This document shows, in pieces, positions 43,299-46,704 of a DNA stretch of 63,686 nucleotides; the first letter of the stretch is position 1, and each line of letters opens with the position of its first letter. Below the pieces are notes generated by a model that did no database searches, had not been told where the DNA came from, and saw nothing but the letters and a program-made list of their open reading frames with translations. The position numbers were made by a program, and so were the translations under genes. Origin of the DNA: a virus. The stretch is taken from the UHGV virus genome UHGV-0312038; one strand, written 5' to 3'.

Positions 43299-43739
43299 TT
43301 AATGGTTCTCTCCGTCCACTTCCTTCCAGTCACGAAACGTGTTCTGAATATCATAGGCGTAGTACGCCGAAAACCTGTGAGCTAATGACTCCGGAGTGTC
43401 AGCCCCCTCAGCCGTGAGCGGAGCTGACTCCCAAGTCCATGGCATGCACCATGGCAAGCCGCCGGACAGATCGTCTTCCTGTACATATTCTTCCGGAGCC
43501 GAATCGGCAAACGCCGCGATGAAACGCATGACGTCCGCATCTGTATACATAATATCGAAGAAGTGGGCGTAAGGTAAAGCGTCCGCGCCTTTGCGGACAC
43601 GGCGTAAGATGGTCTTTACCGTGTCTTCCCTAACCACGGCGCAATGCCCGAGAATCTCAGGCATAACAAATGCCTTCTTGGAAAACGCCGCCTTGCGGAG
43701 AGCGTTAAGAATATCAAACGTGCGGGGATTAATGTGCAT
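43299..43739 (-). CDS. first gene of the leftward early operon; possible winged-helix regulator
   Basis: 146 aa. AGGAGG ribosome-binding site. Lies immediately downstream of operator-like direct repeats. Confidence 0.45.
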   Translation of the reverse strand: MHINPRTFDILNALRKAAFSKKAFVMPEILGHCAVVREDTVKTILRRVRKGADALPYAHFFDIMYTDADVMRFIAAFADSAPEEYVQEDDLSGGLPWCMPWTWESAPLTAEGADTPESLAHRFSAYYAYDIQNTFRDWKEVDGENH

Positions 43740-43751
43740 AATTTCCTCCTG

Positions 43752-43825
43752 TATTTTTGTTTGGGAAAAATCCTATATTTTTGTTTAGGAAAAATCGACT
43801 ATTTTTCCCTGCGGAAAAAGAGGGA
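43752..43825. promoter_or_regulatory. operator/promoter-like direct repeats upstream of the leftward operon
   Basis: Two 22-bp direct repeats (tatttttgtttgggaaaaatcc / tatttttgtttaggaaaaatcg) plus a degenerate third. Each has ATTTTT...GAAAAAT dyad symmetry. Confidence 0.4.
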
Positions 43826-43842
43826 AATATGTGTGGACTGTC

Positions 43843-44020
43843 CTGTACTGGACACTGGACGGGACAGCTCGGGGCAGTGGACAGTGGACAGAGGGACTGT
43901 CCAATAGTGGACAACGGGACACTGGACGGGCCATCCTGTACTGGACAGAAGCGGCTCGGGACAGTGGACACGGCGGCTGGACAGTGGACGGGACAGAGTG
44001 GACAGAAGTACTGTCCCTAC
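43843..44020. repeat. iteron-like array of about 20 copies of (G)TGGACAG
   Basis: For example ggcagtggacagtggacagagggactgtcc... The same 8-mer recurs through 44040-44160. Confidence 0.7.
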
Positions 44021-44169
44021 TCTAGAATACTAAGAGTAACTCTTGCCTCTTTTTAGTGGACAGAAGAAGTCCAATAATTTCAAGGGGTTACAAGCTCTCT
44101 GTCCAGCCCTGTCGTGGATTGCCAATTAAATCAGCGGGTTACGCGAACGGGTGGACAGAGCTCCGGAAA

Positions 44170-44280
44170 ACACACATATATATTTATATAATATATTTAT
44201 ATGTTTTCCCCCTCCTCCTGACCCCTCTATATTATATATATATTTTTTTTACTGTCCAAATAAAATAAATATATAGTAAT
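44170..44280. repeat. AT-rich tract, candidate DNA-unwinding element
   Basis: cacacatatatatttatataatatatttatatg ... ctctatattatatatatatttttttt. Confidence 0.5.
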
Positions 44281-44400
44281 TAGAGGGAAAAAAGTACAGG
44301 ATTTCAGCCACTTAGAAAATCACTGAATTTTTCCCAAGTGGCAATACTGGACAGAGTCGAAAAGAGTAAGTGATAACCCCTTGATTTCATTGAACTTTTT

Positions 44401-44476
44401 TTGTCCAAGGTGGACAGACTTCTGTCCACTCTGTCCACTTGCTCTGTCCACCCGCTGTCCACCCATTGTCCAGCGC
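44401..44476. repeat. five tandem CTGTCCAC iterons in inverted orientation relative to the left array
   Basis: ttctgtccactctgtccacttgctctgtccacccgctgtccacccattgtcc, with roughly 10-11 bp spacing. Confidence 0.7.
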
Positions 44477-44640
44477 AAAAATAAATACAGTATTTATTTT
44501 TCGGGCGTGAAAAATACCAGAATTAATTTTGCCACCCAGAAAAAATACCGTATTTATTTTCAGGCTGGAAAAATACGCCAATTAAAAATATCAGAATTAA
44601 TCCCGCCACCCGAAAAATACCTGATTTATTTGGACAGTTC
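44471..44640. repeat. alternating palindromic (AAATAC-N-GTATTT) and roughly 28-bp direct repeats
   Basis: aaataaatacagtatttattt; aaaaataccgtatttatttt; and two copies of aaaaatayCagaattaatyyygccaccc. Confidence 0.55.
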
Positions 44641-44774
44641 CGGTACAGAGATGCACCGGAACTGTCCCGCCCGTTTTGGCAGTCGGGCAAATGATGAATT
44701 TGCCGGTGCACTCATCCCAGTTACTGGCACACATGTGGACACGTGTATGCCTTTAGATTAAGAGCTAATTAAAT

Positions 44775-44796
44775 GGATAGGGTATATACCCTATCC
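44775..44796. promoter_or_regulatory. perfect 22-bp palindrome GGATAGGGTATATACCCTATCC
   Basis: Seen directly. The half-site AGGGTAT/ATACCCT recurs at 45632-45647. Confidence 0.4.
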
Positions 44797-44820
44797 ATTA
44801 CTAGACCACTAATAAATGGG

Positions 44821-44838
44821 TTGGGGATTTCTCCCCAA
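44821..44838 (-). terminator. hairpin (ttgggga-ttt-ctccccaa) downstream of the minus-strand gene 44847..45347
   Basis: 7-bp stem followed on the minus strand by cccatttatt. Confidence 0.35.
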
Positions 44839-44846
44839 CTCATTCC

Positions 44847-45347
44847 CTACTTCATAAGCTCGGAGAGCTTACGGAGGAAGACCGATTGGTCTTCACTTGA
44901 GAGCCTTGCATAGGCTTTCAGAAGAGCTTCTACCTTATTTAAGTTTTTCGCTACGTAGACGAAAATTTCATCCAGCAGCTTGACACGATTCATAAGGTCT
45001 TTCTTCTCGGGTGCCGACGCCTTAAGCTCTTTATCGGTGCGGTGCTCTACATAGTGGAGCATCTTTCCTTTTTTGACTTCCGACTTCTTCTCACCGAAAA
45101 GAAGGAAGGTGAGCTTCTTACGGGATTCGGCAGCTATCTTACCGCCGATAAGGCGGTAAGCTACGCACAGGTCTTCGATATCTTCGACCGAGCCGCGGTT
45201 TGCGATCCGATTGAAGGCCTTGACTTCCGCACGGGTAAAGACACGGGCAAGACCGGCCTGGACCCTTGTGGCGGCGAAAATTTCCGCACCAAACTCCCTG
45301 TTGTGAAATTTCTTTACGAAAGTAGCACGATTTTCAGACTTAGCCAT
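44847..45347 (-). CDS. hypothetical protein sitting between the two repeat-rich non-coding regions (possible regulator)
   Basis: 166 aa, K/E-rich. Confidence 0.45.
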   Translation of the reverse strand: MAKSENRATFVKKFHNREFGAEIFAATRVQAGLARVFTRAEVKAFNRIANRGSVEDIEDLCVAYRLIGGKIAAESRKKLTFLLFGEKKSEVKKGKMLHYVEHRTDKELKASAPEKKDLMNRVKLLDEIFVYVAKNLNKVEALLKAYARLSSEDQSVFLRKLSELMK

Positions 45348-45399
45348 TTTATACTCCTATCTGATCTTTACTTGTTTTTTGTTTTTGCTGTTCTCGGCT

Positions 45400-45870
45400 A
45401 GTTCCCTGCATGTCATAGTGCATCCGTACCGGTAGAGGCTATCGTCTTGTATAGGGGGACATGGGAGTAGTCCTGCCGTGCCTCCTCCGCGGGACGGAGG
45501 GCAAGGGACGGCTAGGGTCTCATATCATATGCAAGAAACCGGAGCCACGGTGATTTTGCGCGCAGTACCGCCTGGGTACCTGCGGGCTTATCGGGTGTCC
45601 GTGTACTCTGATAGCATACAGGCCGTGATACCCTAGAGGGTATGCAGGTCCGTAGTCATACTCATGTACTGCACGGCATGCCATCAGCACGTAGTAGCCT
45701 GCCATCGGCCACCTATGCTGTACCGGCACAGTACGTCCTTCTATCCCTATGGAGCGGGGCGCTTTCACCCGCAGCTCAGCTTATCGCACATCAGTGCCTA
45801 TCCCAGGCACGGGCGATCACCGTATGATAGTGAGCTTATGCACTTGAGGGGACTACCCCTCTGTCTGTAC
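45400..45870 (+). ncRNA. candidate structured non-coding RNA (GC-rich, ORF-free, many palindromes)
   Basis: About 470 nt with no convincing ORF in any frame and dense local inverted repeats. An intrinsic terminator follows on the plus strand. Confidence 0.25.
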
Positions 45871-45871
45871 T

Positions 45872-45916
45872 GACAGTATAGCGCTTTTCGCTTTATACTG
45901 TCAACGACTTTTTTTT
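45872..45916 (+). terminator. hairpin plus T8, intrinsic-terminator-like
   Basis: gacagtatagcg-cttt-tcgctttatactgtc stem, then aacgac and TTTTTTTT. Confidence 0.45.
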
Positions 45917-46010
45917 ACTTTTTACCTCCGGTGTACTGTCTTAGTGGGTGGGGGCTTATCCCCCGTCTTTCGATAGATACTTTATACGCCCATCCATGGG
46001 GTAGGTCAAG

Positions 46011-46050
46011 GACTTTTTTGACTTTTTTCTACTTTTTTCTACTTTTTTCA
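46011..46050. repeat. four tandem roughly 10-bp T-tract repeats (ACTTTTTTCT); predicted intrinsically bent DNA
   Basis: gacttttttg acttttttct acttttttct acttttttca. Confidence 0.6.
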
Positions 46051-46105
46051 CGGTGGCGGGTGGCGGGCGGTGGCGGGCGGTGGCAGGCAGGGCGGGCGGT
46101 GGCAT
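46051..46105. repeat. G-rich roughly 10-bp tandem repeats (GGTGGCGGGC); possible G-quadruplex motif
   Basis: cggtggcgggtggcgggcggtggcgggcggtggcaggcagggcgggcggtgg. Confidence 0.6.
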
Positions 46106-46270
46106 CAGCTTATCTATATATCCACATATTCATATATCTGCATATGTGCATATGTGCATATCGATATATCTGCATATTCACATATTCATCTATTTAAATA
46201 TAAGCATATCCACATATCTGCATATCAGCATATCCACATATCCACATATCCACATATCTGCATATCAAGA
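46106..46270. repeat. about 20 copies of an 8-bp repeat (yyrCATAT), including several DnaA-box-like TATCCACA(T) units
   Basis: catatccacatatccacatatccacatatctgcatat etc. ATATCCACA matches the TTATCCACA consensus at 8 of 9 positions. Confidence 0.6.
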
Positions 46271-46449
46271 TAGCCTTATATAGGGCGGGGCCTTTGGACG
46301 GCCGGCTCGCTTCGCTCGCTAGAGTAGACCTTATATATGTGCGGACACATCTCGGTCCCCCCACCCATATTGGACAGGCCCCCCATATTTATCCAGAAAA
46401 GTCTTGACTAATTTTTTACTATGCTGCACAGTTTCAACAACATTTCCAA

Positions 46450-46704
46450 ATGGAGGAGTACAGGATGCAGAAACGTATTGCCATATCTAAGATTACTGAT
46501 GACCCTGACCTGTTCAGGCGTATTTACAACTTCTGCCTTGGAGGTTACGTGGTTCTTATCCGCGGCTTTGGAACGTTCCGTCTGAAGCGCAAAGCGTCCC
46601 GTATGGGCCGCAACCCCCGTACTGGTGCCAAGTACAGGATTCCGGAGCGTGGGATTCTCGTGTTCAAAGCCTCCCCGAGTATCCGTCTTGAATACGACAA
46701 ATAA
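46450..46704 (+). CDS. hup: HU/IHF-family DNA-binding protein
   Basis: GFGTFRLKRKASRMGRNPRTGAKYRIPERGILVFKAS matches the HU beta-arm signature. 84 aa. Confidence 0.8.
   Translation: MEEYRMQKRIAISKITDDPDLFRRIYNFCLGGYVVLIRGFGTFRLKRKASRMGRNPRTGAKYRIPERGILVFKASPSIRLEYDK

Follow-up and report, generated by a model that had tools for sequence, protein, structure and literature searches.

Introduction

To our knowledge, few natural RNAs longer than 400 nt have a conserved fold of many helices; examples are the ribosomal RNAs, RNase P, tmRNA, self-splicing introns, OLE, GOLLD, ROOL and HEARO. Each new large folded RNA has pointed to new biology. OLE RNA (Rfam RF01071) is ~600 nt long, contains many helices that are supported by covariation and is co-transcribed with the gene for a protein partner located directly downstream. 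ROOL and GOLLD, for which Rfam holds models, usually lie near tRNA genes and are not gene leaders. Both are large 'ornate' RNAs of bacteria and their phages that form homo-oligomeric cages (Kretsch et al. 2025, PMC12286853). A catalogue of 10,006 candidate viral structured RNAs has also been published (Fremin et al. 2023, PMC10690425).

Here we describe a large multi-domain structured RNA, of a family absent from Rfam, in a phage genome (UHGV-0312038; the whole stretch of 63,686 nt that was analysed is called the window), where an earlier note made from the sequence had proposed a phage non-coding RNA. Like OLE with OapA, OapB and OapC, the element combines a large, many-helix, covarying RNA with a gene directly downstream, here encoding ORF166. 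Unlike OLE, it belongs to a phage and not to an extremophilic Firmicute, gives no covariance-model match and is not homologous; ORF166 has no family assignment and is linked to the RNA by adjacency only. It resembles ROOL and GOLLD, which are carried by phages and prophages, in being several hundred nucleotides long, richly structured and of unassigned function. However, neither model matches even at E<=10 on 601 nt. HEARO and the IscB omega-RNA likewise lie directly upstream of a gene, on the same strand and always co-occurring with it, but ORF166 is only 166 aa long with no nuclease or other recognised domain, and the HEARO model does not match.

Results

Location and relatives of the element

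Positions 45400-45916 fall within a 2.7-kb interval that has a leftward replication operon on one side (its first gene ends at 43739) and rightward early genes on the other (beginning at 46450). The structured RNA locus lies between origin-like repeats and two divergent early operons, and the sole credible ORF of the interval is orf166 on the minus strand (Table 1). As had been claimed, the stretch itself is free of credible ORFs: translation table 11 gives just short, overlapping ORFs on both strands, the longest of 52-82 aa. It had also been described as markedly GC-rich and unusually dense in TAG triplets. The GC content of the core is indeed raised (57% versus 51% in the window), but so modestly that 'markedly' does not hold. 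The TAG density stands, with 12 TAG per 470 nt where the window-wide frequency predicts 3.0 (3.9-fold, making TAG the most enriched trinucleotide); that expectation is set mainly by coding sequence, and the excess would chiefly reflect the absence of coding constraint.

Table 1. Features of the locus (positions in the window)
Feature	Position	Strand	Description	Basis
Terminator-like hairpin	44820..44839	minus	ends the leftward unit; GTTGGGGA-GAAA-TCCCCAAC then CCATTTATTA	terminator scan
orf166	44847..45347	minus	166-aa clade-specific protein, downstream of the RNA	third-position bias, homologues
Spacer	45348..45398	minus	variable, A/C-rich, with the orf166 Shine-Dalgarno AGGAG	poor alignment between relatives
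Structured RNA core	45399..45868	minus (probable)	~470 nt, ~20 helices	covariation, conservation in 8 relatives
3' domain	45405..45648	minus	closed by Hm; stem Hn, Ho; two arms, Hp-Hq and Hr-Hv	
Helix Hm	45648-45641 with 45412-45405		long-range helix	
Arm Hp-Hq	45608-45542		3' domain	
Arm Hr-Hv	45536-45445		3' domain	
Helix Hv	45484-45500		hairpin named in the earlier note	
Local hairpin	45628..45643	minus	AUACCC-UCUA-GGGUAU, overlaps Hm by 3 nt; named in the earlier note	
5' domain	45666..45861	minus	hairpin Ha, branched arm Hc-Hf, hairpin Hg, long arm Hi-Hl	
Long arm Hi-Hl	45734-45666		5' domain	
Hairpin Hg	45772-45754		5' domain	
Branched arm Hc-Hf	45822-45777		5' domain	
Hairpin Ha	45861-45846		5' domain; named in the earlier note	
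Palindrome	45862..45908		hairpin containing P1; on plus, a terminator-like hairpin abutting U8	
P1, promoter-like	45875..45904	minus	-35 TTGACA 45904-45899, 18-nt spacer, -10 TATACT 45880-45875	
A8 tract	45909..45916	minus	ends 4 nt upstream of the -35, UP-element position; the T8 of the earlier note	
Small hairpin	45950..45964	minus	GGGGG-AUAAG-CCCCC, between P2 and P1	
P2, promoter-like, weaker	45981..46009	minus	TTGACC, 17 nt, TATAAA; preceded by phased A-tracts, 46011-46047	read from sequence

Relatives were found by searching with an alignment of ORF166 homologues, which gave 4 IMG/VR and 6 metagenome contigs. These 10 related loci amount to 8 distinct sequences, which together with the window form the nine-sequence alignment used throughout and represent one clade. 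The nearest virus record, a 63,605-bp IMG/VR contig (G001), matches 44300-46161 at 88% identity, covering query positions 1-1862 of 2151. The conserved block is present in all 10 related loci, each time directly upstream of orf166, with a BLAST identity of 75-88%. It begins sharply at ~45399, past the variable 51-nt spacer, and extends through the palindrome to ~45923; the structured core makes up 45399-45868. No other part of the locus is as poorly conserved as this spacer, which contains neither a hairpin followed by a U-run nor a promoter-like site. In each of the 8 distinct relatives the 470-nt core is more similar to the window than is the neighbouring orf166 coding sequence (79-92% versus 71-87% identity in the same loci). 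The region also includes better-conserved sequence, namely the rightward early genes, which are 91% identical in L016.

No copy of the element was detected in INPHARED or the GenBank phages, nor in 185,579 reference genomes searched by DNA pattern and by protein. Two further DNA patterns run against IMG/VR returned only contigs already known from the ORF166 search; the 6 metagenome loci came from a single scan. The structured RNA appears to be specific to one clade of uncultured phages with genomes of ~61-64 kb, for which a gut origin is suggested in part by an anaerobic NrdD gene.

A conserved fold with compensatory changes

The nine-sequence alignment was folded for each strand, and the helices common to both predictions were kept, giving 140 pairs in 23 helices. 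Standard pairs occupy 93.6% of cells, compared with 33-41% when the partners are slid by 1-3 columns. At 41 of the 140 pairs both sides have changed, against 23.4±3.0 in shuffled alignments (none of 500 as high) and 3-8 in the slid controls. The covariation score was 0.218 versus 0.132, and RNAalifold run in the minus orientation returned 139 pairs, 39 of them compensatory. Compensatory changes thus exceed the controls, and 45399-45868 is a conserved structured RNA. The earlier note had also suggested a scan of Rfam. Here, the 4227 models of Rfam 15, which include ROOL, GOLLD, OLE, HEARO, group I and II introns, RNase P, tmRNA and riboswitches, gave no match at the gathering score in the whole window or in 7 related loci, and none even at E<=10 when the element was searched within 2.3 kb or 601 nt.

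The fold consists of two domains. The 3' domain is closed by the long-range helix Hm, in which 8 pairs, 3 of them compensatory, are formed across 240 nt with 100% of cells paired. Within the 5' domain compensatory changes occur in Ha, Hc, Hd, Hf, Hg, Hi, Hj, Hk and Hl, and hairpin Hg displays an almost invariant 9-nt loop, UGAAAGCGC. Three hairpins singled out from the sequence alone all exist, each with compensatory changes in the relatives; they correspond to helix Hv, the local hairpin and helix Ha. One column of the local hairpin covaries with both of its possible partners in L013 and L018, and the local hairpin and Hm pairings may therefore alternate. Long invariant runs are located in junctions and loops, for example CUAUCAGAGUACACGG and CCAUAGGGAUAGA on the minus strand. 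A search for pseudoknots, as covarying stacks not contained in the nested fold, yielded only one alternative to helices already in the fold. The 25 longest inverted repeats listed for 43700-46500 have no arm inside the core, and no tandem or direct repeats were found inside 45399-45868.

Two further observations concern individual parts of the fold. Relative L017 lacks 12 nt in the long arm Hi-Hl (columns 302-313 of alignment A2; ~45675-45686 in the window), so that part of the arm seems dispensable. The minus-strand motif GAUAAGC or CAUAAGC occurs four times (45586-45592, 45780-45786, 45832-45838 and 45955-45960); in two copies UAA forms a small internal loop between helices, and the motif may be a recurring structural module.

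A palindrome that is promoter-like on one strand and terminator-like on the other

The earlier note read the palindrome at the right-hand end of the block as an intrinsic terminator of a discrete plus-strand transcript; on this model a non-coding RNA of ~510 nt would start near 45399. The hairpin followed by T8 is present, with a folding energy of -18.3 kcal/mol (z -6.3) and the base of its stem against the U run, and the relatives have hairpins of the same design that are weaker (-9.9 to -15.4 kcal/mol). A stable, A/U-rich stem of 11 bp ends 6-7 nt before the T run, which in the fold is reached by a 5-bp basal extension containing a bulge and an internal loop. The terminator scan tool does not list the hairpin.

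On the minus strand the same palindrome holds the promoter-like sequence P1, which scores 11/12 in the window; TTGACA-18-TAT(A/G)(C/G)T, scoring 10-11/12, is found at the same place in all nine sequences. In the ~1 kb scanned of the nine sequences, no other sigma-70-like site keeps its position. Judged by its consensus match, a spacer within the 16-18 nt range and its conservation, P1 is a predicted sigma-70-type promoter from which transcription would start at about A45868. The claimed terminator is real as a hairpin, but its arms are the elements of a putative opposite-strand promoter and its T8 occupies the position of an upstream A-tract. A 'hairpin plus T-run' may thus be a promoter of the other strand preceded by an A-tract.

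Substitutions within the palindrome bear on both readings. The top pair is C-G in five sequences and G-C in four, the change of the stem top from AGCG/CGCT to AACC/GGTT amounting to two compensatory pairs, and at the stem base three sequences have a C-G pair and five a U-A pair. The compensatory changes at top and base each derive from one split in the tree. Alternatively, they could stem from an RNA hairpin carried by transcripts that start further upstream, at P2, or from a symmetric site at which a protein binds over the promoter. All sequences share the first T of TTGACA, while the base opposite it in the hairpin changes (U-A in five sequences, C-A in one, G-A in three), which argues for selection on the hexamer and not on the pairing.

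The architecture of P1, an A-tract followed by GTnn and TTGAC, is repeated ~100 nt upstream at P2, a weaker candidate. Its TTGACC and position are kept in 5/9 sequences (the window and four relatives), the other four having a TTTACA-like hexamer; the -10 lacks the final T, hence the scan tool does not list it. The stem of the small hairpin between P2 and P1 varies and yet pairs (GGGG/CCCC, GGGTG/CACCC and GGGAG/CTCCC, read by eye). The interval between the leftward promoter-like sites (45917-46010, alignment A4) exists in two versions. In five of the nine sequences, the window among them, it contains TTGACC...TATAAG with a short hairpin; the other four have TTTACA...GA(C/T)TCT and an insertion of 14-20 nt that forms extra hairpins. 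In L018 (230-390, corresponding to ~45860-45960 of the window) the module of A-tract and TTGACA...TATAGT palindrome occurs twice in tandem, 122 nt apart, and each copy has the small upstream hairpin region.

Strand of the RNA

Folding energies and substitution patterns leave the strand neutral. Over the nine sequences the mean folding energy is -180.9 kcal/mol for plus versus -174.4 for minus, the z-scores are -2.6 and -2.9, and the structure-conservation indices are 0.76 and 0.79, respectively. Fitch counting over the strand-neutral helices gave 33 events that are G.U on plus versus 39 that are G.U on minus, along with 43 other mismatches. Weaker indicators lean to the minus strand. Its fold contains 166 G.U and 38 A.C cells, versus 103 G.U and 49 A.C for the plus fold, even though the plus strand is the richer in G+T (52%). 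In 3/9 sequences the central pair of the local hairpin is a G.U on minus and an A.C on plus. Among the columns that neither strand's prediction pairs, A makes up 37% on the minus strand and U makes up 37% on the plus strand; known RNAs have A-rich loops.

Transcription signals favour the minus strand. On the plus strand, the ~600 nt to the left of 45399 contain no conserved sigma-70-like promoter in any of the nine sequences. For orf166, no promoter-like site other than P1 and P2 was found (~1 kb scanned, nine sequences). If orf166 is expressed from a sigma-70-type promoter, the element would have to be transcribed on the minus strand as its leader.

The discrete plus-strand RNA proposed in the earlier note is, on this evidence, unlikely. 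It would account for a stem that reaches the U run, for its stability in the window and in the relatives, and for the compensatory changes at its top and base, and the plus strand does fold slightly more stably on average. Moreover, a promoter by itself does not explain the covariation at the stem top, except where selection came from a symmetric protein-binding site or from transcripts that start at P2. A plus-strand transcript would, however, start next to the poorly conserved 51-nt spacer, with no conserved plus-strand promoter to its left, and would end in a hairpin formed by a minus-strand -35 that does not vary and a -10 close to consensus. The central A.C mismatch in the local hairpin and the U-rich loops also speak against it, and the covariation at the stem base stems from a single split in the tree.

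Transcription of both strands would combine a leftward leader with a mirror-image rightward antisense RNA, the two interacting via hairpin loops as in ColE1 RNA I/RNA II and CopA/CopT, with both folds under selection. The equal frequency of G.U-type and A.C-type departures (33 versus 39 events) would be expected under such an arrangement, as would a palindrome with opposite signals on its two strands. Nevertheless, the plus-strand promoter is missing and 'other' mismatches are as common (43 events), so the symmetry may mean only weak selection on single pairs among close relatives. We know of no antisense pair that spans 470 nt of multi-branched structure, and we consider transcription of both strands very unlikely.

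Single-stranded DNA and protein-coding accounts

The fold might instead act in single-stranded DNA, for example as a priming or strand-initiation signal of the origin-like region (43740-44846), and not as RNA. In favour of such a role, the element lies ~550 nt from the origin-like repeats and its mismatches are without strand asymmetry. Known single-strand initiation signals are much smaller, simple sets of hairpins, whereas ~20 helices are present here, including a covarying helix that spans 240 nt. The element also sits between a conserved promoter consensus and a gene on the same strand, and the phage encodes its own primase-helicase and polymerase. A DNA-level function thus has only a slim chance of being correct.

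The chance that the stretch is a protein-coding gene with a reassigned stop (TAG as sense), or a decayed gene, is negligible. Reading TAG as Q does open a plus-strand frame of 188 codons in the window (45307-45873), and the same strand is open over 143-148 codons in three relatives. In the other relatives, however, the longest run lies on the other strand or in another frame, and whether the standard code is used or TAG, TGA or TAA is treated as a sense codon, the longest stretch without a stop switches strand and frame among relatives, so that no reassignment provides a frame open across them. Because the open frame is inconsistent between relatives, the 188-codon frame is a chance feature. 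Compared with the window, each relative carries 5-10 indels that are not multiples of 3. Variable columns of the core are distributed evenly by phase (68/62/68, p 0.83), whereas the first 108 nt of orf166 display the third-position bias of a real gene (15/15/33, p 0.006). The large genes of the window are intact under the standard code, and ARAGORN reports 0 genes (tRNA, tmRNA, tRNA-like) in the window, hence no suppressor tRNA. A conventional gene at this position in related genomes, which the earlier note had named as a finding that would overturn its proposal, does not occur in the eight relatives, and the alternative-code translation it had suggested leads to the same answer. Covariation, frame-breaking indels, the absence of codon periodicity and the lack of a consistent open frame strongly support the element as a structured non-coding RNA; a gene in the standard or a recoded form fails on frame, indels and third-position preference alike. 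The ARAGORN result also disposes of a tRNA, tmRNA or tRNA-like element.

ORF166, the protein encoded downstream

ORF166 has 446 homologues in public metagenome protein sets, from which it follows that the phage clade is common; the 120 listed are 74-100% identical. The family is nearly confined to the clade, comprising one 50% cluster and fragments, with two weak relatives (E 1e-5 to 3e-4). ORF166 has no match in Pfam, NCBIfam or PDB sequences, and a weak match to a PHROG 'transcriptional regulator' (E 7.8e-4). An AlphaFold2 model is mostly helical and unreliable (pLDDT 47.7), too poor for a fold search, and in the ESM Atlas the best score, 0.79, is below the useful range. Between the window and G001 the N- and C-terminal thirds are conserved and the middle of the coding sequence (~44950-45090) is much more divergent. 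The terminator-like hairpin beyond the gene differs from that of G001 by one stem substitution.

A type III toxin-antitoxin system of the ToxIN kind was considered, in which an antitoxin RNA of ~34-47-nt tandem repeats and a terminator precede a toxin gene of ~170 aa. It was rejected: 45399-45868 has no tandem or direct repeats, and there is no terminator-like site before orf166.

Discussion

The element has a conserved fold with covariation, is non-coding, retains a promoter consensus beside it and co-occurs with orf166 in every locus found. We favour, with moderate confidence, the view that it is a structured RNA of ~470 nt transcribed leftward from a conserved sigma-70-type promoter as the 5' leader of the orf166 messenger. 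Transcription would most likely proceed from P1 inside the palindrome, with the A8 tract upstream, and the weaker P2 may add transcripts that begin ~100 nt further upstream. The transcript would run through the RNA into orf166 and the unit would end at the minus-strand terminator (44839-44820). Since there is no terminator or promoter between the RNA and orf166, the RNA would constitute the leader of that messenger.

Structured 5' leaders such as riboswitches, T-boxes and autoregulatory leaders likewise occupy the stretch from the promoter to the start codon of a single gene and have highly conserved unpaired nucleotides in junctions and loops. In contrast to these, the element is three to five times the typical leader size, the 51-nt segment by the ribosome-binding site is variable and no riboswitch model matches. 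Neither a terminator/antiterminator nor a helix that would mask the Shine-Dalgarno sequence was detected. Together with the variable segment on the side of the ribosome-binding site, this makes control of the simple riboswitch type unlikely. In our view the folded RNA acts in its own right, because its nucleotides are better conserved than those of the gene that it precedes, and its role probably goes beyond tuning translation. The RNA could associate with ORF166, either to form a ribonucleoprotein or to allow autoregulation; alternatively, it could be released as a stable non-coding RNA. Our best guess is an ornate leader or non-coding RNA that works with ORF166, an association suggested by their adjacency.

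A bolder proposal would make the element a new class of large 'ornate' RNA with its own dedicated partner, the 470-nt fold, either released or within the orf166 messenger, forming a ribonucleoprotein with the clade-specific ORF166. We regard this as quite unlikely. The RNA is located at the phage's control hub, with origin-like repeats on one side and the two divergent early operons on the other; if the proposal were true, this position would suggest that the complex could control the start of replication or the early switch. The strict pairing of the RNA with one small protein, ORF166, yields a direct, testable hypothesis, and at 470 nt the RNA is of a size suited to chemical probing or cryo-EM.

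The RNA II pre-primer of ColE1 is a structured RNA of ~550 nt that is transcribed from a strong promoter toward the replication origin. The element described here would similarly be a promoter-driven, structured RNA of comparable length directed toward an origin-like region. However, orf166 and the terminator-like hairpin intervene between the RNA and the origin-like repeats, and no sign was seen of a short antisense partner driven by a separate promoter.

Several sequence features were noted in and around the origin-like region. A half-site within the element, ATACCCTA, had been linked in the earlier note to a palindrome at 44775, but the link does not go beyond chance, as the window contains 4 copies versus 1.8 expected and 12 of 100 shuffles reach 4. 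Just beyond the orf166 terminator, the palindrome GGATAGGGTATATACCCTATCC (44772-44799) shows 96% identity over 28 nt in each of L016, L013 and L020, far more than the sequence around it, and might serve to bind a protein at the border of the origin-like region. Further to the left, both strands contain promoter-like matches that overlap TGGACA repeats in the origin-like region (43999-44028 and 44229-44277); on the minus strand, for example, TGGACA-16-TATAAT scores 11/12.
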